Shown here: one piece after another, positions 3,019 through 14,426 of the stretch | Layout of the letters: each line of letters starts with the position of its first letter | How positions within the stretch are numbered: position 1 is the stretch's first letter | Assembly: GCA_016783665.1 (NCBI GenBank) | Contig: JADHWC010000004.1 | Coordinates: forward strand, 1,934 to 65,933 | From: Fidelibacterota bacterium | GTDB taxonomy: Bacteria; Fidelibacterota; UBA2242 | Direction of reading: 5' to 3' | Length of the DNA: 64,000 nt | Notes under the pieces: model-generated | Told to the model about the DNA's origin: nothing | Database searches by the model: none | The model's input: only the letters and a program-made list of their open reading frames with translations | Translations under genes and position numbers: made by a program

Positions 3019-4212
3019 TTATCCGACGAAAATAATTGAAAACAGAGTCACACAAATAATCGCAACCAGTCCCGGCATCAACACTTTTTGGTAAAATTCT
3101 TTAAGATTGCTCCGGAAGTATTCAATAGTAACCGATATGCAGGGATGAACCGGGCTGACGATATAGCCGATAAAAACCGCAAAATACATTACCGCAAAAA
3201 CCATTGGCGTCACACCGTCTGCGCCGAAGCGCGCGTAAAATATCGGCAGGATTATAGATACGGGCACCTGAACACGACCGGTGACGAAACCGAGAAAGAC
3301 TCCAATTCCCACAATCAGAAATGTTTTGGAAAATGCAATTGCCGATATAGCCTCAGACGCATTCGAAGCCTTAAAGACATTCAGAAAAATGAACATTGCC
3401 ATGATCAGCAGGAAGAATCGCCAGGGTTTCGTTTTTACTGTTAAAGGCGCGATATCTTTCAGGGGTAATTTGCCGAAATAAAAACTCATACCGAGAGCTG
3501 CCAGAACACCGATCAGCAAAGGAATTTCTCCCATGACACTTTTAAATAGTGTAATGGAGGTTACATGAATAAGCGGCGCTGTTAAAATTATACATATTGG
3601 CGTCAGAATATTTTTCCAGTTATGTTGCCCCGCCAGGCTGGTTGTGTCCTCAATCGGTTTCAGCAGATAAAAATATCCGAGAAGCAACAGCAGCAGAAAG
3701 CCCGGCAGTAAATACAGCACTTCCGTATAAAGATTTAGTTGCGCCATCTTGGTGGTTGCCAGCAGACCGGCAAGAGGATAGACCATCACCAGAATATGCC
3801 GGAACCAGACATTGATAGCAACATAGTCTGCTTTGGACGCGCCCTTTCCGACGCCGGCGATGACCGGAGCAGACAGCAGCGCACCGCCGGGCATATTGAG
3901 CATACCCATAAATGCCGGTGCAAGAGCAAGGAAGGTTTTACTGCGCATGTTCAGGGATTGTATCAGATTTTTGATGAGTCCCGATCGACCTAAAACCCCG
4001 CCGATCAATGGTATGACCCCAACCGACAGCGCCAGAATAAGGATTGGCGGATTGGTGAAGGTGTTGAAAAAAATCTTTGCCACATCCTGAAATGACAGGT
4101 TTAAAATACCGAGAGTAAAAGCGGCGACGATCAATCCCAGCCAGATACTCTTTCTTCCGATGAGGATCAGCAGGAAAATCGAGGACAGGAAACTGAACCA
4201 TATAAACGCCAT
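3019..4212 (-). CDS. DUF401-family (TIGR00529-like) integral membrane protein
   Basis: 397 aa, multi-pass hydrophobic, motifs GMLNMPGGALLSAP, NVWFRH and SPVHPC. Confidence 0.75.
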   Translation of the reverse strand: MAFIWFSFLSSIFLLILIGRKSIWLGLIVAAFTLGILNLSFQDVAKIFFNTFTNPPILILALSVGVIPLIGGVLGRSGLIKNLIQSLNMRSKTFLALAPAFMGMLNMPGGALLSAPVIAGVGKGASKADYVAINVWFRHILVMVYPLAGLLATTKMAQLNLYTEVLYLLPGFLLLLLLGYFYLLKPIEDTTSLAGQHNWKNILTPICIILTAPLIHVTSITLFKSVMGEIPLLIGVLAALGMSFYFGKLPLKDIAPLTVKTKPWRFFLLIMAMFIFLNVFKASNASEAISAIAFSKTFLIVGIGVFLGFVTGRVQVPVSIILPIFYARFGADGVTPMVFAVMYFAVFIGYIVSPVHPCISVTIEYFRSNLKEFYQKVLMPGLVAIICVTLFSIIFVG

Positions 4213-4526
4213 GAAAACCCCTCTTTTAAATTAAAGCGTGCTAAAGATAGATATTCAGTAAATTGTTTCAAAGAAAATCAGATTTCTTGTTTATCCTGGT
4301 TAAGAGATAAGCTCCTCCAAAACCAATTTAGACCTTCAGTCAGGAATTGGTTTGGTATGATTTCTATCATTTATTGGATTGATTATTTTTTCTTGAAAAT
4401 GGCGTGATGTTTGTAGCATTACGTAAAAGTCGTTGGAATTGAAGGAAATTTATCTCATATTTTTAGGAATAATATGCAATTAATTCTCGACTTTGAAAAA
4501 CAACACAACTTTTTAGGGAATGCAAC

Positions 4527-5477
4527 ATGAAAAAGATTCTTGTGACCGGATCTTTGGGGCAGATCGGCTCGGAACTGGCGACCGCTTTATGTAATCGATA
4601 TGGCGCCAATAACGTGATAATTTCCGATATAAGGGAAAAGCGAAGTGATGATGAAACAGCAGAATGTAAATGCGCAGTTCTGGATGTAAGCAACGTGAAG
4701 CAGATCGCCAGGATTGTTCACGAAGAGAAAATCACTGTTATTTATCATCTGGCGGCTCTTCTGTCGGCAACGGCGGAAAATAATCCACAGCTGGCATGGG
4801 ACATTAATATTAACGGGCTTTACAATATTCTTGAGGTGGCAAGGGAATATAATTGCGCCGTGTTCACGCCGAGCAGTATTGGCGCTTTTGGACCGACGAC
4901 GCCTGCTGAAAATACACCGCAGGATACAATTCAGCGCCCGACGACAATTTACGGAGTCACAAAGGTTGCCGGAGAGCTGCTCTGTGATTATTACTACAAA
5001 CGCTTTGGCGTGGACACTCGCGGACTGCGCTATCCTGGGATCGTCTCTTATAAGACACTGCCGGGTGGTGGCACGACGGATTATGCGGTGGATATCTATT
5101 ATGAAGCCATCAAACAGAAAAAATACACCTGTTTCCTGAAAGCCGGCACATTTCTTGACATGATGTATATGCCGGACGCTATAAAAGCTGCTATCGATCT
5201 GATGGAAGTCGATCCGGACAGGCTGGCTCATCGCAATGCCTTTAATGTCACAGGGATGAGTGTCGATCCCGAGAAAATTGCTGCATCGATTCGCCAACAT
5301 ATTCCTGATTTTGTGATTGATTATGACATCGATCCTGTTCGCCAGGGAATTGCGGATTCCTGGCCCAATTCTCTTGATGATTCCGCCGCCAGAGAAGAAT
5401 GGAATTGGGAGCCTGAATATAATCTTGACAGAATGACTGAAGAGATGTTGAAGTGCCTGAAAGAAAAACTTTTATAA
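4527..5477 (+). CDS. tdh: L-threonine 3-dehydrogenase, SDR/epimerase type
   Basis: GSLGQIG Rossmann motif, HLAALLSATAE, PSSIGAFGP, catalytic YGVTK, LRYPG and PGGGTTDYAVDIY, typical of SDR-type TDH. Confidence 0.85.
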   Translation: MKKILVTGSLGQIGSELATALCNRYGANNVIISDIREKRSDDETAECKCAVLDVSNVKQIARIVHEEKITVIYHLAALLSATAENNPQLAWDININGLYNILEVAREYNCAVFTPSSIGAFGPTTPAENTPQDTIQRPTTIYGVTKVAGELLCDYYYKRFGVDTRGLRYPGIVSYKTLPGGGTTDYAVDIYYEAIKQKKYTCFLKAGTFLDMMYMPDAIKAAIDLMEVDPDRLAHRNAFNVTGMSVDPEKIAASIRQHIPDFVIDYDIDPVRQGIADSWPNSLDDSAAREEWNWEPEYNLDRMTEEMLKCLKEKLL

Positions 5478-5495
5478 ATAATCGTTAGTGATTTT

Positions 5496-5867
5496 ATGAT
5501 TTTCGGAATTGGAATAGATAATATCGAAGTGGATAGAGTTCGGAAGCAACTTGAGCAAAACAGATTTAAGGAAAAAATATTTTCACCAGCCGAGATCGAA
5601 TATTGCGATAACAGGAAGAATTTCGCCGAGTGCTATGCCGCCCGCTTTGCCGCGAAGGAGGCTTTCCTTAAGGCGATCGGAACGGGCTGGCGGGGCGATT
5701 TGGCTTTCAATGAAATTGAAGTATTGAATGATAAATTGGGAAAACCGGTATTGAAGCTTTATGGAAAATCAAAAGAGTTTGCCGAGGAAAACGAAATTGA
5801 CAACATTCATGTTTCGCTTACCCACCTGAAAAATTATGCAAGCGCAATAGTTATTATTGAAAAATAA
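5496..5867 (+). CDS. acpS: Holo-[acyl-carrier-protein] synthase (phosphopantetheinyl transferase)
   Basis: 123 aa, GIGIDNIE, YAARFAAKEAFLKA, GKPVL, IHVSLTH. Confidence 0.95.
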   Translation: MIFGIGIDNIEVDRVRKQLEQNRFKEKIFSPAEIEYCDNRKNFAECYAARFAAKEAFLKAIGTGWRGDLAFNEIEVLNDKLGKPVLKLYGKSKEFAEENEIDNIHVSLTHLKNYASAIVIIEK

Positions 5868-5880
5868 GGGAGAGTTATTT

Positions 5881-7587
5881 ATGTCGAACATTGGCTCATA
5901 CAAAGAAAGGTTGAAGAACTTTGACTGGTCGATAGCCGAGAAAGAACTCGGTTATAATGAAGGTGAAGTCATAAATATTGGCTGGTACTGTTCCGACCGC
6001 ATCTGTGAATTGGGGAAAGCCGGTAAAACGGCTCTCATCTGGGAAGGATTGGGTGGTGGCGCCAGGCAATATACTTTCGATGATGTTCGTGTAAGGAGCA
6101 ATAAATTTGGGGCTTTTCTACGAAGTTTGGGATTGAAGAACGAGGATAGGGTTTGCCTTTTTATGGATAAGATTCCCGAACTCTATATTGGTTTTCTGGG
6201 AGTACTGAAAATCGGAGTGATTGCCCAGCCGCTTTTCTCTGCCTTTGGAGACGAATCTCTGCATGTTCGCCTGGATAATGCGGAAACCACCGCAATAATT
6301 ACTCAGAGAAAACATGTCTCGAAAGTGCGCAGGATCATTGAGAAGAGCCCCTATCTGAAAAATGTAATCATCGTGGATTATGATGGGAAGAAACCACTGA
6401 AAGACAGAGAGATAACGTTCGACATGGAAGAATATGAAGAACCGAAAGACTTTGAATTCTTTCCCACAAAAGCTGAATCGCCATCGGTGCTGCATTATAC
6501 TTCGGGGACAACCGGTCAGCCCAAAGGCGTAAAACATGTTCACTATTCTCTAGTTTCGCAATATCTTACTACCAAATGGGTGCTTGATCTTCAGGAAGAC
6601 GATATTTACTGGTGTACAGCTGATCCGGGCTGGGTTACCGGTACGTCATACGGTATTATCGGACCCTGGAGCATGGGAATTACCCAATGCGTTATGGATG
6701 TGGGGTTTTCCGCTGAAAACTGGTACAAATTCATTGAGAAACATAAAGTAACCATGTGGTATTCCGCCCCCACGGCAATCCGTTCCTTAATGAAAGCCGG
6801 CGATGAGGTTGTGAAAAAACATAATTTGTCTTCGCTGCGTCACCTGGCAAGTGTGGGCGAGCCCCTGAACGCCGAAGCGGTAATCTGGTCGGAAAAAGTA
6901 TTTGGAAAACCATTTCTGGATACTTATTGGCAAACAGAAACTGGCTCCATAATGCTCACGAACTTTCCCGGTATGAAGATCAAGCCGGGCTCGATGGGAA
7001 AAGCTTTTCCGGGAATTACAGCAACCATTGTTGATACAAAAACATTTAAGCCCATTCAGGAAGTCGGGAAGATTGGTCTGATCGCCTTCAAACCCGGCTG
7101 GCCAGCCATGATGAGAACATACTGGAACAACGAAACAACCTATAAATCCAAGTTTACAAATGGATGGTACCTGCCCGGAGACAGGGCATATATTGACCAG
7201 GATGGATATTTCTGGTTCGTTGGTCGTGAAGACGATGTGATCAATACCGGTGGGCATCTGGTCAGTCCGTTTGAAGTGGAATCGGCGCTGCTGGAACACG
7301 AAGCTGTTGCCGAATCAGCCGTGGTTGCCAAGCCGGACGAAGTGAATATGGAAGTTGTGAAAGCTTTTGTGATGCTTAATGCCGGCTATGTGGCTGACAA
7401 TATGCTTGAACTTAATATTATGAACTTTATTCGTAAAAAACTTTCTCCGCTGGCGATGCCCCAGGAGATAGAATATGTAAAGACCCTGCCCAAAACCCGC
7501 AGTGGTAAGATCATGAGACGGCTTCTGCACGCCAAAGAATGGGGCGAGGAAATCGGCGATACTTCGACTCTTGGGGACGATGAATAA
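5881..7587 (+). CDS. acsA: Acetate--CoA ligase-like adenylating enzyme (short Bacillus AcsA type)
   Basis: LHYTSGTTGQPKGV (A3), WCTADPGWVTGTSYG, SVGEPLN, DTYWQTETG (Trp of the small acyl pocket retained), PKTRSGKIMRR. Start placed at ATG 5881 (MSNIG) after a GGGAG RBS; the ORF track starts at 5857. Confidence 0.88.
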   Translation: MSNIGSYKERLKNFDWSIAEKELGYNEGEVINIGWYCSDRICELGKAGKTALIWEGLGGGARQYTFDDVRVRSNKFGAFLRSLGLKNEDRVCLFMDKIPELYIGFLGVLKIGVIAQPLFSAFGDESLHVRLDNAETTAIITQRKHVSKVRRIIEKSPYLKNVIIVDYDGKKPLKDREITFDMEEYEEPKDFEFFPTKAESPSVLHYTSGTTGQPKGVKHVHYSLVSQYLTTKWVLDLQEDDIYWCTADPGWVTGTSYGIIGPWSMGITQCVMDVGFSAENWYKFIEKHKVTMWYSAPTAIRSLMKAGDEVVKKHNLSSLRHLASVGEPLNAEAVIWSEKVFGKPFLDTYWQTETGSIMLTNFPGMKIKPGSMGKAFPGITATIVDTKTFKPIQEVGKIGLIAFKPGWPAMMRTYWNNETTYKSKFTNGWYLPGDRAYIDQDGYFWFVGREDDVINTGGHLVSPFEVESALLEHEAVAESAVVAKPDEVNMEVVKAFVMLNAGYVADNMLELNIMNFIRKKLSPLAMPQEIEYVKTLPKTRSGKIMRRLLHAKEWGEEIGDTSTLGDDE

Positions 7588-7593
7588 AACTTT

Positions 7594-7663
7594 GCCACCA
7601 AGACACGAAGGCACAAAGAAAAAACTACTATTAATTAACTTAGTGTCTTGGTGACTTTGTGGC
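7594..7663. repeat. Imperfect inverted repeat (REP/MITE-like)
   Basis: gccaccaagacacgaaggcacaaag ... cttagtgtcttggtgactttgtggc between acsA and the carrier protein gene. Confidence 0.55.
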
Positions 7664-7699
7664 TGAATAATTTCAAAAAATCAACATAGGAGAAAAAAA

Positions 7700-7945
7700 A
7701 TGGAAGAGATCAGAGATGCTGTATTGGAATATGTTATTGAAGAATACCTGGAAGACGAAGACGAGGAAATTAGTTATGAAACGCCGCTCATTTCAGGTGG
7801 AATAGTAGATTCATTCTCAATGGTGTCGCTCAAGAGATTTCTGGAAGCAAGATACAATATATCCATACCTGATGAAAAGGCGTCGCCGGAAGCTTTTGAT
7901 ACGGTAAATAGTATTACAGCCCTGGTTAAAGAAATTACCAGTTAA
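7700..7945 (+). CDS. Acyl/aminoacyl carrier protein (stand-alone)
   Basis: 81 aa, very acidic, LISGGIVDSFSMVSL with phosphopantetheine Ser, IPDE...FDTVNSI tail, AGGAG RBS. Confidence 0.9.
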   Translation: MEEIRDAVLEYVIEEYLEDEDEEISYETPLISGGIVDSFSMVSLKRFLEARYNISIPDEKASPEAFDTVNSITALVKEITS

Positions 7946-8079
7946 AAACCAGAGTGATGTTTCATGGTGTTATAAATCGGTGATATATGTAAAAAACAGT
8001 CAACCATTAAGCGGAATTCACATGGTTGACAAAACCAAATATTTAGAAAATTCTTAAAATTGATAAAGAAGGGATTGTT

Positions 8080-9327
8080 ATGAGTTTTAATGAAAAAATC
8101 AGAGCCATGTATGTTGAGCAGCTAGAGGGCATTAAGGATGCCGGAATCTTCAAGCAGGAAAGATTCATCCATTCCGCTCAGGCTGCCGATATCGTAGTGG
8201 AATTCCCCGCCGGGTCTTCGCTGAAAAAGGTAATCAACATGTGCGCCAATAATTACCTGGGACTTTCCAGCCACCCGGAAGTAGTAAAAGCCGCCCACGA
8301 TGGGCTTAATACAAGAGGATACGGAATGTCTTCAGTACGATTTATCTGCGGCACGCAGGATATCCATAAAGAACTGGAAAGAAAGGTCACCGAATTTCTC
8401 GGAACAGAAGACACGATTCTTTTTCCATCTTGCATGGACGCCAACGCCGGCGTCTTCGAAGCTATCCTCACGGATGAGGATGTGATGATCTCCGACAGAT
8501 TAGTGCACGCCTCAATCATTGACGGTATCCGTCTTTGCAGTGCAATGCACGATACGTTCAAACATTCTAATATGAGCCACCTGGAAAAGAAACTGCAGCT
8601 TCATGCCGATAAGAGGCTGAAAGTTGTAATCACAGATGGTGTATTCAGTATGGATGGCGATACCGCCAAACTCGATGAAATGGTCGCACTTTGTGAAGAG
8701 TATGACGTAATGTTGTTTGTGGACGATTCTCATGCGACGGGATTCATTGGTAAGACCGGCAGGGGAACTCATGAAAAATGCGGCGTCTTTGGAAAAATTG
8801 ACATCATTACCACTACTTTCGGAAAAGCGCTTGGCGGCGCATCCGGCGGATGTGTTGCCGGGCGAAAAGAACTGGTCGAGATGTGCCGGCAGAAAGCACG
8901 TCCCTATCTGTTTTCCAATACAATCGCGCCGGTTGTGGTTTCCGGTGTGCTCAAAGTGCTGGATATTTTATCCGAGAGTACTGAAAGGCGGGACAAACTG
9001 GAAAAGAACACTGCATATTGGCGGAAAGGGCTAACAGAAGCCGGATTTGTATTAAAGGATGGTGATACGCCAATCGTCCCGGTGATGCTGTTCAATGCGA
9101 AATTATCCCAGAATATTTCCAAGGACCTGTACGATGAAGGCATTTATGCTATTGGCTTCTTCTTTCCGGTTGTTGCCAAGGGGCAGGCCCGTATCCGAAC
9201 CCAGATCTCTGCCGGTCACGAAATTCACCATCTTGATAAAGCCCTGGATGCATTTATCAAAGTCGGCAAGAAATATGATATTCTCGGTAAGTCCAAACAG
9301 GAAATCATCGAAATGTACAGACTATAA
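8080..9327 (+). CDS. kbl: Glycine C-acetyltransferase (2-amino-3-ketobutyrate CoA ligase), AOS-family PLP enzyme
   Basis: CANNYLGLS, SVRFICGTQ, FSMDG, DDSHATG, TFGKALGGASGG (PLP Lys), RPYLFSN, ARIRTQISAGH. Confidence 0.9.
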   Translation: MSFNEKIRAMYVEQLEGIKDAGIFKQERFIHSAQAADIVVEFPAGSSLKKVINMCANNYLGLSSHPEVVKAAHDGLNTRGYGMSSVRFICGTQDIHKELERKVTEFLGTEDTILFPSCMDANAGVFEAILTDEDVMISDRLVHASIIDGIRLCSAMHDTFKHSNMSHLEKKLQLHADKRLKVVITDGVFSMDGDTAKLDEMVALCEEYDVMLFVDDSHATGFIGKTGRGTHEKCGVFGKIDIITTTFGKALGGASGGCVAGRKELVEMCRQKARPYLFSNTIAPVVVSGVLKVLDILSESTERRDKLEKNTAYWRKGLTEAGFVLKDGDTPIVPVMLFNAKLSQNISKDLYDEGIYAIGFFFPVVAKGQARIRTQISAGHEIHHLDKALDAFIKVGKKYDILGKSKQEIIEMYRL

Positions 9328-9531
9328 TATTTAAGTTTTTATGAATTATTTCTAAAACAATATCTGGAACTTGGAATAGCCTTCAGAATTAATTAACCCT
9401 GTGACGTCTCTTGGGAGATATGATACGATATATAATATCAACCAGCAATTGTAAATACTACATTCGGTATATTAAATTTGTAAGTTGCGTAATAGGGTTA
9501 ATAGCGACAGCAAAAGGAATCCGAATTAAAA

Positions 9532-11295
9532 ATGGAGAGTAATCATAAAAAAGTTCTATTCTCCCGAATGATGGATAGGTTGAAATCGTTTAAACCTGTT
9601 AATTGGAATGATATTACCGATGCTCTGTCAGTAGTTAAGGAAAACGCTCCCCCGCTTAAGCAATTTGACGAAGCTGAATTCTTTGAAAAAGTCCGAAAGG
9701 GAATTGGTTTCTGGACATTTGATTTTGGAATTGACGGCGTTTCAATCGAAATATCGAAGTATGCTCAATGTCTTCAAGATATTCTTTCCAATGAAGAAAA
9801 GGCGTCGATCCATTTGATTTCCGGAGATTTTCATTCTCAGGCTGATAGCGTAATTAAACCGGAATGGCATAGATTCCATATCCCACGCGTCAATGGATGG
9901 TTAAAATGGGATAACGGTGTGTGGTTTGATAAACTTTTTTACAGGGACATGCCGGAAGGAAGCCCGGAATCTGATGAAGTAGCCGTTGCAATCTGGAATC
10001 AGGCGGTTGGTCTTGCAGAAAAGTTGGGTGCTTATATTGCTGAAAAAGATCTATCACTTCTGATTCCTGTAAATGTTAATTCAAACCCGGGGAATTTGGC
10101 TACAGGAATGTGCACCGTTCTGGTTTCTGAATTGATGGGCCTCTATGTTATCAACTCAAATCATGACTTCTACTGGGAAGGTGGTAAACCGGCTTCGCAA
10201 AAGAAAATTGACGAAGCATCTGGGCCCAGAGATAAGTTTTTCCGCAACATAGCTAACCGCCCCTTCTTTTCTATGTTCGAGAAAATTTATCCATGGAATG
10301 GTAAACGTTGGCTGCAGATTAATATTAATAAGCCTCAATCGAATAATCTTGTCGAAAAATTGGGGTTCCCAAAGGATCGTGTCTTTGAGATTTCAACCTC
10401 TGTAAGTGATGAATTTTTCAAAAAGTATACTAAGAATGAAATTAAATCTGTTCGTTTACGAATGGCTCACATTCTTTCGGACGGCAATCCAATGATATAT
10501 CCTATTGCTGCTAACCCGCATTTGGAAAAATTGAAAAATTGGATGAACAAGCAAAAACCATTGGTATGTGCTAATCGCGATGGGCTAATTCTGGATTTAA
10601 CTTCCGACCGTATTTTTTATTTCCTTCAGCCGACGCGCATAATAGACCGAAAACGCATCGAGAAAGATTTGCATCTGATTGCTGCATTGCTAAAACATCC
10701 AACATTCCGTTGTGAATTTGAGCGGAATACGGAACGGCAAATTATTCTTCATATTACAGGTCCCGCTCCCATTGAACATCAAGCCGATTTAGAGAATGTT
10801 CTGGAAGCCTATATCGATGTACTTTCGGAAGTTCCGGATTCAATGGCTGACCGGATATTTTTAGCATTCTCTGTAGGGACGGAAGAACATGTTTGTTTTT
10901 TGGAAAAAGGTTTCAAAAGCCTCTGCATTGAAGATATTTACAGGCTTGCTACGGCAATAGTTTTTCCCAGCAAAACAGAAGGTCGGGGTTTGCCGATTAT
11001 CGAGTCGTGCGCCGCTGGAGTTCCTATCATCTGCAGCCGCTACCAGCCGGAGCAAATTTTTGCGGACGTTGTGGGTGAAAGTCTGGCTGAAGAACAACAG
11101 ATTCAGTATATTCTATTCCCCGAAGAAGATTTTTCGGAATCACTTCTAAATGAGATTACCGATCTTTTAATATATCCCGAAAAGGGGAAAGAGCGAAAAG
11201 AACATAATATTAAAGCAACCCGGCAAAGATATGGACCGGAAATTATGAAAGAGACTTTAAAAAAATTCTTAATTGAACTAATTAATATAAAATGA
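9532..11295 (+). CDS. GT-B (GT4-like) glycosyltransferase, large
   Basis: 587 aa, N-terminal GIDGVSIEISKY motif, HDFYWE, PTRIIDRKRIE, and the C-terminal donor-binding segment FPSKTEGRGLPIIESCAAG. Confidence 0.75.
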   Translation: MESNHKKVLFSRMMDRLKSFKPVNWNDITDALSVVKENAPPLKQFDEAEFFEKVRKGIGFWTFDFGIDGVSIEISKYAQCLQDILSNEEKASIHLISGDFHSQADSVIKPEWHRFHIPRVNGWLKWDNGVWFDKLFYRDMPEGSPESDEVAVAIWNQAVGLAEKLGAYIAEKDLSLLIPVNVNSNPGNLATGMCTVLVSELMGLYVINSNHDFYWEGGKPASQKKIDEASGPRDKFFRNIANRPFFSMFEKIYPWNGKRWLQININKPQSNNLVEKLGFPKDRVFEISTSVSDEFFKKYTKNEIKSVRLRMAHILSDGNPMIYPIAANPHLEKLKNWMNKQKPLVCANRDGLILDLTSDRIFYFLQPTRIIDRKRIEKDLHLIAALLKHPTFRCEFERNTERQIILHITGPAPIEHQADLENVLEAYIDVLSEVPDSMADRIFLAFSVGTEEHVCFLEKGFKSLCIEDIYRLATAIVFPSKTEGRGLPIIESCAAGVPIICSRYQPEQIFADVVGESLAEEQQIQYILFPEEDFSESLLNEITDLLIYPEKGKERKEHNIKATRQRYGPEIMKETLKKFLIELINIK

Positions 11296-11305
11296 GAATG
11301 AAGCT

Positions 11306-11476
11306 ATGAATATTGGATTTATTGAAGACACATATCTGCGCGGTGGCACTCAAATTTGGGTAACAGAAGCAAATAGCTTCTTTTTAGAACAGGGTGAAGA
11401 AACAACTATTATAGCCCCAACAGGAAGCTATGTGGCGGAAGAATGCCGGAAAGCGGGGGCTCAAGCATTTACTTAT
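11306..11476 (+). pseudogene. 5' fragment (57 codons) of GT4 glycosyltransferase interrupted by IS1634
   Basis: MNIGFIEDTYLRGGTQIWV...AQAFTY. The frame continues as DYDKVVSK after removing the IS and one TTAT copy. Confidence 0.9.
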
Positions 11477-11601
11477 CCCAAGTTCGACAGTTTTCATTCC
11501 AAAAATCATAAAAACCAGTTTATCAGACATCATAACCTATTGTTTTTATTGATCTGATTATTTCGGAGTCAGAATGTAGGGACTGAATATAAATATTATA
11601 C

Positions 11602-11630
11602 TTGACATCCATATTTGAGTTATGTATATT
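11602..11630 (+). promoter_or_regulatory. Sigma70-type promoter of the transposase
   Basis: TTGACA (11602-11607), 17 bp, TATATT (11625-11630). Confidence 0.75.
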
Positions 11631-11635
11631 ATGTC

Positions 11636-13504
11636 GTGTATATTCGAGAAAAAGTAAAAAACAGGAATGGCAAACGATACGTTCAACATCAATTGCTGGA
11701 GTCAGTTCGCACACCTGACGGTCCCAGACAAAATGTAATCCTCAATCTTGGTATTCTGGATTTGGAAAAGGATAAATGGAAATTATTAGCTAATGTCATC
11801 AAAGAGACACTATGTAATCAGAACAGGATATTTCAGATTGACCCGGAAATAGAAAAAATGGCTGAACATTACGCTGCGTTGATTTTGGAGAAACGATTAC
11901 AGCAAGCCGCTGAAAATATAGAGAGTAGTGAAAAAAGTGATGAAAATGAAAACCGGGCGCAATATGAAAGTGTCGATATACACTCTGTTTCCACCTCAAA
12001 TGCAAGAACCCAGGGTGCTGAACATGTGGCTGTTAAACAGATGGATGAATATGGATTTGATAATATTCTAAGAGATCTTCAATTTGATGACAAACAGATT
12101 ATTTATACCAAGATGCTTATTGCAGGCAGAATGGTTCATCCAGCCAGTGAAAGGGAAACAGTTAGATGGATAAATGAGAATAGTGCCATAAAAGAGTTAT
12201 TGAGAACAGATGTGAAAGTATATGATAATGCTCTGCATCGAACGGCTATCAAGTTATGGCAATATCATGAGGCAATAGAAAAGCAGTTATCGAAATCAGC
12301 CGTAAAGATGTTTTCATTAGAAGAATCTGTTATTCTCTATGACTTGACAAACACCTACTTTGAGGGAAGCAAGCGGGGTAGTTGGATAGCCAAACCCGGA
12401 GGATGTTCAAAGGAGCGGCGGAATGATCGCCCTTTGATTACTTTAGCGCTCACTGTAGACGAAGAAGGATTTCCCAAACAGAGTTGGTTATTGGATGGCA
12501 ATGTATCAGAACCAGGGACTTTAGAAAGAATGCTGAATGATCTTTCAGAGTATACTGAAACAAATCTGTTTAATTCGAAAAAGACCATAGTCATGGATGC
12601 TGGAATAGCCACAGATGATAATCTTAAAATAATCAAATCGAAAAACTATAACTATGTGGCTGTATCCAGGAAACAGTCATACGGTAATAATTTCTGGGAT
12701 GATAGTAAAGAGAAACAGCTGGAATTGAAGGATGACAAAACAAAATTAAAGATAAAGATGGTTAGAACTGATGATGAAAGTTTTCTTCTGTGCCACAGCG
12801 AAATGAAGGAGGCTAAAGAGAGAGCGATTCTTGAGCGTAAACTGAAGAAGTTTGAAGAGGGGCTGAAAAATCTAAAGGATGGTTTAAAAAAGAAGGGAAC
12901 TCAAAAGAAATACTCTAAAATCATCGAGAGAATAGGTCGATTGAAAGAGAAATGTGGTGTTGGTACTCTGTATGATATTGATGTAAAAGAGAAGGATGGA
13001 GTTGCGGTAGAGATTGAATTCAGCAAGAATTCGAAAGGAGAGGCAAAGGAATGTAGAGCTGGGGAGTATGTAATAAGAACAAACAGGTTAGACCTTTCGG
13101 GTGAGAGAATATCTCAGATACATCGTTCTCTGACTAGAATTGAAAATTGTTTTTGCAGTATGAAATCGGAATTGGGAATGAGGCCTAACTACCACAAAGA
13201 AGATGATCCGGCAATTGCCCATATAGCTATAACCGTTATTGCCTATCATATACTTTCTGGGATATTGAAAAAATTGAGAATTGGTGGTGTTAATTATAGA
13301 TGGGAAACGCTTAGAAATATTTTATCCAGTCATGTTCGGATAACAACCAACTTTAACACTGAAAAAAATGAGACTATACATATTAGAACAAGTACTACCC
13401 CGAGCATTAAACAGCGCGAGATATACCGGAAACTCAAGATTAAAATGAAACCATTAAAAAGAGTTGTAACTAAATTTAAAAAAAGTGTAGTGCCTAAAAA
13501 ATAA
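11636..13504 (+). CDS. IS1634-family DDE transposase
   Basis: YIREK N-terminus, QLLESVRT-GPRQ, LYDLTNTYFEG, SKERRNDRP, TIVMDAGI, RIENCFCSMKSELGMRPNYH, AHIAITVIAY. GTG at 11636 preferred over the track start at 11615. Confidence 0.95.
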   Translation: MYIREKVKNRNGKRYVQHQLLESVRTPDGPRQNVILNLGILDLEKDKWKLLANVIKETLCNQNRIFQIDPEIEKMAEHYAALILEKRLQQAAENIESSEKSDENENRAQYESVDIHSVSTSNARTQGAEHVAVKQMDEYGFDNILRDLQFDDKQIIYTKMLIAGRMVHPASERETVRWINENSAIKELLRTDVKVYDNALHRTAIKLWQYHEAIEKQLSKSAVKMFSLEESVILYDLTNTYFEGSKRGSWIAKPGGCSKERRNDRPLITLALTVDEEGFPKQSWLLDGNVSEPGTLERMLNDLSEYTETNLFNSKKTIVMDAGIATDDNLKIIKSKNYNYVAVSRKQSYGNNFWDDSKEKQLELKDDKTKLKIKMVRTDDESFLLCHSEMKEAKERAILERKLKKFEEGLKNLKDGLKKKGTQKKYSKIIERIGRLKEKCGVGTLYDIDVKEKDGVAVEIEFSKNSKGEAKECRAGEYVIRTNRLDLSGERISQIHRSLTRIENCFCSMKSELGMRPNYHKEDDPAIAHIAITVIAYHILSGILKKLRIGGVNYRWETLRNILSSHVRITTNFNTEKNETIHIRTSTTPSIKQREIYRKLKIKMKPLKRVVTKFKKSVVPKK

Positions 13505-13571
13505 TGACTGTAATTTGCAACTACCTGTTATTTCTTTACTTGTGAAATATCAAGTGTCGAACTTGGGTTAT

Positions 13572-14390
13572 GATTATGATAAGGTGGTGTCAAAGGATAC
13601 TGAGAATAAAAAGGTCTGGACAGACGGCTTGCAGAATTGCGATGTGGCTGTTTGTACTGTTCATCCTCCCAGAGATTCATTTCATTGTTCGGTATTTGCC
13701 GGCGAATGTATGAAAGAGAGTAATGTAAATACAATTCTCATTCCTAAAACCGGAACTATCGTTCCTGAGTATAAACGCGAATTCTATCTTCCTGATGAAT
13801 CTATCCGGTCGGCTGTAATTGCAATTACAGGTTTTACGCGCACATACCTGATTGATTCTTACAAGCTTCCTGCTACCGGTGTTGAATTAATTTATCAAGG
13901 CACCGAGGTAAGGCGTTTCACTACAAATGCAGAGAGAAAAAAGGAATCTTTCAAGCGATATTCTCTGCCCGGTAATGCCTCGCCCGTTTTGGGAAATGTC
14001 GGGATGTTTGAAGAACGGAAAGGACAAACTGTTCTTTTGGAGGCTGTAAAAATATTGGTTAAAGGTTCTCATCCGAATTTGCATTTAATTCTCGTTGGAG
14101 AAGGACCGGATGAGCAAATGCTGAAAGACAAAGTTGAAGATATGGGAATCGAGGAACATGTGACATTTTTCCCATTCACCCGTGAGCCGATGTTCATTTT
14201 TGAAAGAATTGACGTTTTGGTTCTCTCAAGTTTGTATAAAGAAGGTTTGCCGAATGTATTGCTTGAGGCGATGTCTATGAAAGTACCCGTCGTTTCTTCA
14301 GAAATGGCTGGCGTACCGGAGGTTGTAAAAGATGGTGAAACGGGGTACATGGTTGAACCGGGGCTCCCCGCCTGCCTATCGGCAATCTAA
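13572..14390 (+). pseudogene. 3' fragment of the GT4 glycosyltransferase, C-terminally truncated
   Basis: GMFEERKGQ, LVGEGP, SSLYKEGLPNVLLEAMSMKVPVVSS and VKDGETGYMVEPG, then an abrupt LPACLSAI-stop encoded by a GC palindrome. Confidence 0.88.
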
Positions 14391-14399
14391 TCGGGCAGG
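14366..14399. repeat. REP-like palindrome at the 3' end of the GT pseudogene
   Basis: ccccgcctgcc...ggcagg. The 11-mer is the reverse complement of 486-496. Confidence 0.6.
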
Positions 14400-14426
14400 T
14401 TCTCCGGATCAGAAATCAACCTGGTT

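Follow-up and report, generated by a model that had tools for sequence, protein, structure and literature searches.

A 64,000-nucleotide stretch of the genome of an uncultured marine Fidelibacterota bacterium (assembly GCA_016783665.1, contig JADHWC010000004.1, positions 1,934 to 65,933; here called the window) carries five contiguous genes encoding an L-threonine 3-dehydrogenase (Tdh), a 4'-phosphopantetheinyl transferase (AcpS), an AcsA-type adenylating ligase, a stand-alone carrier protein, and a paralogue of glycine C-acetyltransferase (Kbl) (Table 1). A widespread cassette of four genes (acpS and the ligase, carrier, and kbl genes) is present in the window as a single copy, here led by tdh. 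The closest relatives (94 to 97% identity) are labelled Candidatus Marinimicrobia or Neomarinimicrobiota. The five genes share the forward strand from 4527 to 9327, with intergenic gaps of 13 to 134 nt in which no terminator-like sites were found, and an Rfam scan of positions 3900 to 9700 for riboswitches or leader control gave no match at an E value of ≤1. Open reading frames and profile searches agree with a first-pass annotation of this DNA, which had described the five genes as co-oriented and had pointed to the serine motif of the carrier (DSF, within GGIVDSF) and the DTYWQTETG motif of the ligase, both of which are present in the translations. The ligase reading frame opens at a TTG codon at 5857, and its likely start is the ATG at 5881.

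The window Tdh is homologous over residues 1 to 314 to the enzyme in PDB entry 7ol1 (phmmer E = 2e-125), and 18 solved threonine dehydrogenases match it at E < 1e-74. Its translation contains GSLGQIG at the GxxGxxG NAD site and YGVTK as the catalytic YxxxK, and full-length homology together with both motifs identifies it as an L-threonine 3-dehydrogenase of the short-chain dehydrogenase/reductase (SDR) type. AcpS scores 110 bits with TIGR00516 (cutoff, 59.8). In one metatranscriptome, short contigs that are 90 to 95% identical cover tdh and the ligase and kbl genes, and transcription of these genes is therefore demonstrated only for a relative.

Table 1. Positions of the genes and elements discussed in the text (window coordinates unless preceded by the L number of another locus; GT, glycosyltransferase; IS, insertion sequence)
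Feature	Position	Strand	Description
tdh	4527-5477	+	SDR (GalE-like) NAD-dependent L-threonine 3-dehydrogenase, 316 aa
acpS	5496-5867	+	AcpS-type 4'-phosphopantetheinyl transferase, 123 aa; PF01648, TIGR00516
AcsA-type adenylating ligase ("GHL type")	5881-7587	+	568 aa; proposed acetate:carrier-protein ligase
Stand-alone carrier protein	7700-7945	+	81 aa; Ser38 in GGIVDSF, at the start of helix 2
kbl, clade A	8080-9327	+	Glycine C-acetyltransferase paralogue, 415 aa including a 13-aa C-terminal tail
GT587	9532-11295	+	GT-B-like, intact, 587 aa; weak GT1/GT4 C-terminal domain, PF13692/PF00534
GT4, 5' fragment	11306-11476	+	57 codons
IS1634-family element	11477-13567	+	2091 bp; transposase at 11615-13504
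GT4, 3' fragment	13568-14390	+	PF00534, 118 bits; lacks about 53 C-terminal codons
DUF401/TIGR00529 membrane protein	3019-4212	-	397 aa
GHL ligase, DltC-like carrier, and MBOAT row	L169:562-4086; also L168, L086, L087		Sister system
GT pair elsewhere	L081:4312-7210; L083:6001-8894; L084:6001-8882		GT587 homologue followed by GT4
Second Kbl copy	L002:9613-10866; also L007, L013, L021-L023, L029, L038		Directly after cassette Kbl
Large genes between ligase and carrier	L002:2049-7954; L009:2954-7826
Pat-like protein	L018:4661-6763; L025:6362-9073; L067:5108-7786; others		About 890 aa
Third alpha-oxoamine synthase	L032:10029-11264; L034:6054-7379; L060:9747-11000		About 31% identical to Kbl

Conservation of the cassette across phyla

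With the carrier as query and one genome taken per species, relatives with 64 to 96% identity were found in at least 373 species genomes. Neighborhoods were counted in the best 80 loci, and the denominators below (70, 74, and 66) are the loci among these with enough flanking sequence. In 65 of 70 loci, the ligase gene is the immediate upstream neighbor of the carrier gene; a Kbl of ≥68% identity is encoded directly downstream in 72 of 74, and acpS directly precedes the ligase gene in 42 of 66. The hosts comprise Marinimicrobia, Cloacimonadota, Bacteroidota, Aminicenantes/Acidobacteriota, Zixibacteria, Delongbacteria, Elusimicrobia, Ignavibacteria, Bacillota, Caldisericota, KSB1, and Fibrobacteres. 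The first-pass annotation had regarded adenylating enzyme, carrier, and Kbl as a unit and had proposed conservation of the order from acpS through kbl to the glycosyltransferase genes as a check; the core of that order recurs in many phyla. Two further components that it had included did not recur in the same way. The reductase is not an obligatory part, since tdh adjoins the cassette in a minority of loci (SDR type in 8 of 80 and Zn type in 4 of 80), and the glycosyltransferase genes found downstream of kbl in the window and two close relatives occur in none of the other 77 loci. A link to threonine and glycine metabolism is provided by these tdh genes and by a second, canonical kbl near the cassette in 30 of the 80 loci, among which no other gene family was consistently linked to it. 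No account of the cassette turned up in full-text literature searches.

Protein identities between phyla are 70 to 87% for Kbl, 64 to 86% for the ligase, and 64 to 88% for the carrier. Third codon positions are only 34 to 47% identical, and synonymous divergence (dS) is saturated and not computable. Nonsynonymous divergence (dN) between phyla is ∼0.10 for kbl, 0.10 to 0.26 for the ligase gene, and 0.11 to 0.23 for the carrier gene. The combination of saturated synonymous sites and low dN indicates long-term joint purifying selection rather than recent transfer, and recent horizontal transfer as the source of identities of 80 to 90% was rejected for the deep splits on the same grounds. Some transfer or misbinning is suggested by a small number of pairs in the tree that are near identical across phyla. 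The acpS gene evolves several times faster than the other three (dN of 0.28 to 0.78 relative to other phyla). Adjacency at a frequency far above chance supports the view that the ligase, carrier, and Kbl act as a functional unit.

Variations on the cassette were also observed. Large genes separate ligase and carrier in two loci, encoding a 1740-aa protein in one and beta-propeller proteins sorted by the type IX secretion system in the other, so that the cassette can be interrupted and still retain all of its parts. In five loci, a Pat-like protein, with ADP-forming Acs domains and a GNAT domain, is encoded shortly downstream and may regulate the ligase via its conserved A10 lysine. In tdh-bearing loci of Zixibacteria and Ignavibacteria, a third and distant alpha-oxoamine synthase is encoded after the cassette.

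Carrier, ligase, and Kbl of the cassette

The carrier is a member of PF00550 (21.4 bits). Its AlphaFold2 model (predicted local distance difference test score [pLDDT] of 89) best matches the structures of PigG, PltL, DltC (including the DltB-DltC complex), and the carrier of a glycine:carrier-protein ligase, and the predicted fold therefore appears closest to those of carriers charged by stand-alone adenylating enzymes. The likeness to DltC is at the level of the fold only, as the DltC equivalog NF003464 gives 29.5 bits (cutoff, 68), and neither dltA nor dltB was found in the window. The best NCBIfam model for the carrier is named for the acyl carrier protein (ACP) of OlsHI, but the score of 65 bits lies below its cutoff of 130, and the OlsH/OlsI ornithine-lipid system, which relies on a GH3-like enzyme in planctomycetes, was ruled out.

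The window ligase scores 743 bits with NF003313, the equivalog of AcsA-type acetate-CoA ligases (cutoff, 729), and is 47% identical to Bacillus subtilis AcsA (PDB 9g79; E = 4e-164). Residues were surveyed in 57 cassette ligases aligned with this enzyme and with Salmonella enterica Acs. The four residues that form the acetate pocket of the latter (V310, T311, V386, and W414) are matched by V252, T253, and V325, which are invariant, and by W350, which is present in 55 of the 57, bearing out the small acetate-type pocket that had been read from the DTYWQTETG motif. The A10 lysine (Lys543) and the PKTRSGK acetylation-site motif, likewise shared with both reference enzymes, are kept in all 57. The cassette ligases differ from the references in that their gene precedes a carrier gene and at one signature position: Arg526 of S. 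enterica Acs, which is Arg in both references, is replaced by Leu460 ("GGHL") in 57 of 57, and the conserved arginine of acetate-CoA ligases (Arg528 in M. thermautotrophicus) is thus missing. This arginine, which is required for the CoA-dependent second half-reaction, stabilizes the thioester-forming conformation, and its replacement cuts kcat 130- to 326-fold or leaves the enzyme unsaturable with CoA (PMC10455477). The invariant leucine is therefore suggestive of a loss of CoA use.

The cassette Kbl scores 573 bits with TIGR01822 (cutoff, 493) and 569 bits with NF005394 (cutoff, 460), and it matches PDB entry 7bxp at E = 4e-139. In the tree, the cassette sequences form a monophyletic group (support, 100/99), designated clade A. 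Its sister group is a small clade of second copies from Delongbacteria, which also bear a tail, whereas canonical Kbl, that of C. necator among them, falls elsewhere. Among 63 clade-A sequences, the catalytic residues (the pyridoxal phosphate lysine K249, the stacking H143, the D215 and H218 pair, S190, and the carboxylate arginine R371/R373) and Val86, which lies beside the glycine C-alpha, are invariant, and valine at the latter position marks glycine-selective Kbl enzymes (PMC11906848); glycine as substrate and Kbl chemistry are thus expected for clade A. Several other residues are invariant in this clade only. F115, P116, and M119 (F119M) lie in the acyl-side SCMDAN segment, and R140 and V142 (N142V, which turns LNHAS into LVHAS) adjoin the histidine that stacks on pyridoxal phosphate (PLP); D194, T374, and the 13-residue C-terminal tail complete the set. 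These changes are candidates for carrier docking or for specificity toward the thiol partner. A second copy, ∼61% identical, directly follows the cassette Kbl in Delongbacteria and in one metagenome-assembled genome labelled Bacteroidia. This copy has the C-terminal tail yet retains the canonical LNHAS and F119 and is therefore intermediate between clade A and canonical Kbl.

The textbook Tdh-Kbl pathway needs only CoA. Both of its enzyme families are represented in the cassette and its flank (E. coli kbl-tdh; PDB entries 1FC4, 7BXP, and 7OL1), and the catalytic residues and glycine-selectivity valine of Kbl are all conserved. The locus differs from this pathway in that genes for the phosphopantetheinyl transferase, the Acs-like ligase, and the carrier lie between tdh and kbl, and in that Kbl belongs to a distinct clade (N142V, F119M, R140, and tail) that often occurs beside canonical Kbl.

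Among described systems, the nearest is AasR/AcpR/Spt, found in Caulobacter and other Rhodobacteria, in which a specialized ligase charges a private carrier, Spt prefers the carrier thioester, and an SDR-type reductase acts on the product (PMC9386255). The earlier comparison with ACP-dependent aminoketone layouts of the sphingolipid type was apt with respect to this logic, although the likeness to the cassette is one of gene order only. The cassette ligase is Acs-type with an acetate pocket rather than a long-chain FadD-type enzyme, the synthase is Kbl-type (using glycine, reversible, and without decarboxylation) rather than Spt, and the predicted product is a C4 amino acid rather than a lipid base. 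Spt models score 317, 271, and 220 bits on the cassette Kbl (cutoffs, 640, 500, and 670, respectively), and long-chain ligase models score below their cutoffs on the cassette ligase. Membership in a sphingolipid or sulfonolipid cluster was ruled out by the sub-cutoff Spt scores and the acetate-sized pocket, and the comparison is kept as an analogy.

A sister system provides a second context for the same ligase and carrier types. More distant carriers (∼42 to 47% identical to that of the window) sit between the gene for a ligase and that for a membrane-bound O-acyltransferase (MBOAT). The MBOAT-linked ligase is 61% identical to the window ligase and has the same pocket, the same NTGGHLVSPFE motif, and leucine at the Arg526 position, and the MBOAT encoded downstream of the carrier is of the AlgI/DltB type with a C-terminal FIYFQF acyl-shuttle motif. 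The set is located within a polysaccharide cluster whose other genes encode ATP-grasp, GT2, PGA_cap, and GT1 proteins. A search of metagenome contigs with the MBOAT-linked carrier returned only distant carriers beside generic ligases, and we found no description of the ligase-carrier-MBOAT system.

DltC, once charged by an adenylating enzyme, donates the acyl group to the MBOAT DltB in the Dlt pathway (PMC12148441). The sister layout follows this DltA-DltC-DltB logic, by analogy with which the GHL ligase type would be a carrier-protein ligase. The row looks like a Dlt-like route by which a carrier protein would hand acetate on to a surface polymer, and the ligase-carrier pair, by the same analogy, would be a loading module reused with different acceptors. 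The cassette has in common with Dlt a stand-alone adenylating enzyme and a small DltC-like carrier, relatives of which are directly followed by a DltB/AlgI-type MBOAT. It differs in that the ligase is Acs-derived rather than DltA, the predicted acyl group is acetate rather than D-alanine, and the acceptor enzyme in the window is a soluble PLP enzyme rather than an MBOAT.

Genes flanking the cassette in the window

The glycosyltransferase segment downstream of kbl proved to be less simple than the pair of GT-B genes originally described. The first, GT587, is intact, but the second is a GT4 gene split by an IS1634-family element, whose transposase had been overlooked (NF033559, 249 bits; cutoff, 100). 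The element has perfect 13-bp terminal inverted repeats (11477 to 11489 and 13555 to 13567) and a TTAT target duplication, and transposase, repeats, duplication, and an empty site together identify it as a member of that family. Rejoining the GT4 flanks restores the reading frame, whose product shares 79% identity over 321 residues with a 374-aa GT4 encoded on an unrelated contig (locus L081). This homology ends at residue 321, near 14370, and the second gene is here an IS-disrupted, 3'-truncated pseudogene. The joint expected of an empty site (11472 to 13568) was recovered from four public DNA runs, in one of them at a depth of 85 versus 29 for the element, and in another run, X6, the element is absent. 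These read data mark the insertion as a recent polymorphism within natural populations. In run X6, contigs break and branch at 14334 to 14386, where the truncated 3' end of GT4 lies beside a rhomboid gene, a pattern suggestive of another structural polymorphism on the right-hand boundary of the segment.

The segment lies directly downstream of kbl in the window and in close relatives L001 and L014. In the relative L003, which is 90% identical, kbl is directly followed by the rhomboid gene, positions 9329 to 14412 of the window are absent, and homology resumes at 14413. Elsewhere, 756 homologues of GT587 (53 to 91% identity) occur in several phyla, including Actinomycetota, Bacteroidota, and Verrucomicrobiota. 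These proteins of 585 to 587 aa are always followed by a GT4 of 373 to 374 aa, in unrelated contexts without cassette genes. The distribution identifies the pair as an autonomous, strain-variable two-gene module unrelated to the cassette.

On the other side of the operon, a DUF401/TIGR00529 membrane protein is transcribed divergently from tdh and is possibly an operon-linked transporter.

Predicted reactions, their direction, and their significance

We propose the following mechanism. AcpS would arm the 81-aa carrier with phosphopantetheine. The Acs-derived, GHL-type ligase would adenylate acetate and place the acetyl group on the thiol of the carrier instead of on CoA. Clade-A Kbl would then catalyze its normal reversible reaction with a carrier thioester (acetyl-S-carrier + glycine ↔ 2-amino-3-ketobutyrate + HS-carrier), and Tdh, where tdh is in the operon, would connect 2-amino-3-ketobutyrate with L-threonine via NAD(H). 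On the basis of synteny, selection, residue signatures, the carrier fold, and the sister system, we consider it somewhat probable that acetate held on a private carrier is exchanged in this way with glycine and 2-amino-3-ketobutyrate and is linked through Tdh to threonine.

Several observations weigh against this proposal. First, both ligase and Kbl score above the NCBI equivalog cutoffs for ordinary CoA enzymes. Second, Arg518 of the ligase, equivalent to Arg584, which contacts the 3'-phosphate of CoA, is invariant in the cassette ligases, and the replacement of Arg526 by leucine is consequently suggestive of, rather than proof of, lost CoA use; around Arg191, long and short Acs types align poorly. 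Third, no fusions of ligase to carrier or of carrier to Kbl were found among the 150 best matches from 1.84 billion representatives, the only fusions seen being those of distant carriers to alpha/beta-hydrolases. Fourth, two of the 74 loci (L004 and L057) have no Kbl after the carrier, and their neighboring genes (for a phosphoesterase, a GNAT protein, a sigma factor, and a protease) are uninformative. Fifth, acpS, which is fast evolving, of the AcpS type, and absent from a third of the loci, may be a housekeeping phosphopantetheinyl transferase. Finally, the gene identities, synteny, selection, residue signatures, and sister system are observed, and from these we infer every biochemical step, including the loading of the carrier.

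With regard to direction, we tentatively favor ATP-driven operation, in which acetate and glycine would be converted to 2-amino-3-ketobutyrate and then to threonine. A fully charged private pool of acetyl-carrier could push a condensation that the acetyl-CoA/CoA ratio cannot, the ligase of the sister MBOAT system must run forwards, and canonical Kbl is often present for catabolism. Threonine formation by reversed Kbl and Tdh has reportedly been obtained in vitro with the E. coli enzymes.

The opposite direction is a live rival, albeit an unlikely one, and corresponds to the earlier suggestion of threonine catabolism through acetyl-ACP. Tdh would oxidize threonine, clade-A Kbl would cleave 2-amino-3-ketobutyrate onto the carrier, and the ligase would run backwards (acetyl-carrier + AMP + PPi → acetate + ATP), conserving energy by substrate-level phosphorylation without the CoA pool. 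The position of tdh at the head of the operon in the window is consistent with such a role, as is the Kbl reaction, in which cleavage is favored, and reverse operation of an AMP-forming Acs has reportedly been suggested in Syntrophus aciditrophicus. Marinimicrobia, Cloacimonadota, Aminicenantes, and the other hosts are anaerobes commonly viewed as amino acid fermenters that excrete acetate, which also counts against the direction that we favor. However, a second catabolic Kbl would be redundant in the 30 loci with a canonical copy beside the cassette, the forward-running ligase of the sister system is not accounted for, a private carrier would bring no obvious benefit, and nothing in the loci indicates a supply of pyrophosphate.

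It is more doubtful still that the genes are ordinary neighbors, with a normal acetyl-CoA synthetase, a CoA-dependent Kbl, and a carrier and AcpS that serve another process. The equivalog scores, intact catalytic residues, and retained Arg518 would all be expected on this explanation. It does not account for a carrier gene held between the other two in many phyla (65 of 70 and 72 of 74 loci) at saturated dS, for leucine at the Arg526 position in every cassette ligase surveyed, for a separate Kbl clade that often occurs alongside canonical Kbl, or for the recurrence of the same ligase and carrier types with an MBOAT. The main proposal of the first-pass annotation, in which a carrier-bound C2 or C3 unit is condensed with glycine, reduced, and glycosylated to an osmolyte or lipid head group, draws on the co-orientation of the glycosyltransferase genes directly downstream of kbl and is hardly credible, given the absence of this segment from L003 and the other loci, the independence of the pair elsewhere, and the disrupted state of its second gene.

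A broader form of our proposal is that a widespread and hitherto unrecognized acetate-loading module, made up of the GHL ligase and the DltC-like carrier, is plugged into either clade-A Kbl or MBOATs, with acetyl-carrier in place of acetyl-CoA as the working thioester; this is possible, but we hold it with considerable reserve. If it is true, we predict the following. (i) With clade-A Kbl, the module would constitute a CoA-independent, ATP-pushed route from acetate and glycine to threonine in hundreds of uncultured anaerobic species or, if reversed, a new form of substrate-level phosphorylation. (ii) With AlgI/DltB-type MBOATs, it would carry out Dlt-like O-acetylation of surface polymers. (iii) The ligases would represent a new class of acetate:carrier-protein ligase that can be recognized by a single Arg-to-Leu signature.

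To our knowledge, the combination of a private carrier with an alpha-oxoamine synthase has until now been described only in pathways for sphingolipids and natural products, and the cassette would be its first use in small-molecule, central metabolism. If the carrier does replace CoA, the labels "acetyl-CoA synthetase" and "glycine C-acetyltransferase" would be misassigned to these proteins by every annotation pipeline, and models of acetate, glycine, and threonine flux would be wrong for abundant anaerobes of sediment, groundwater, and marine habitats, numbering at least several hundred species.

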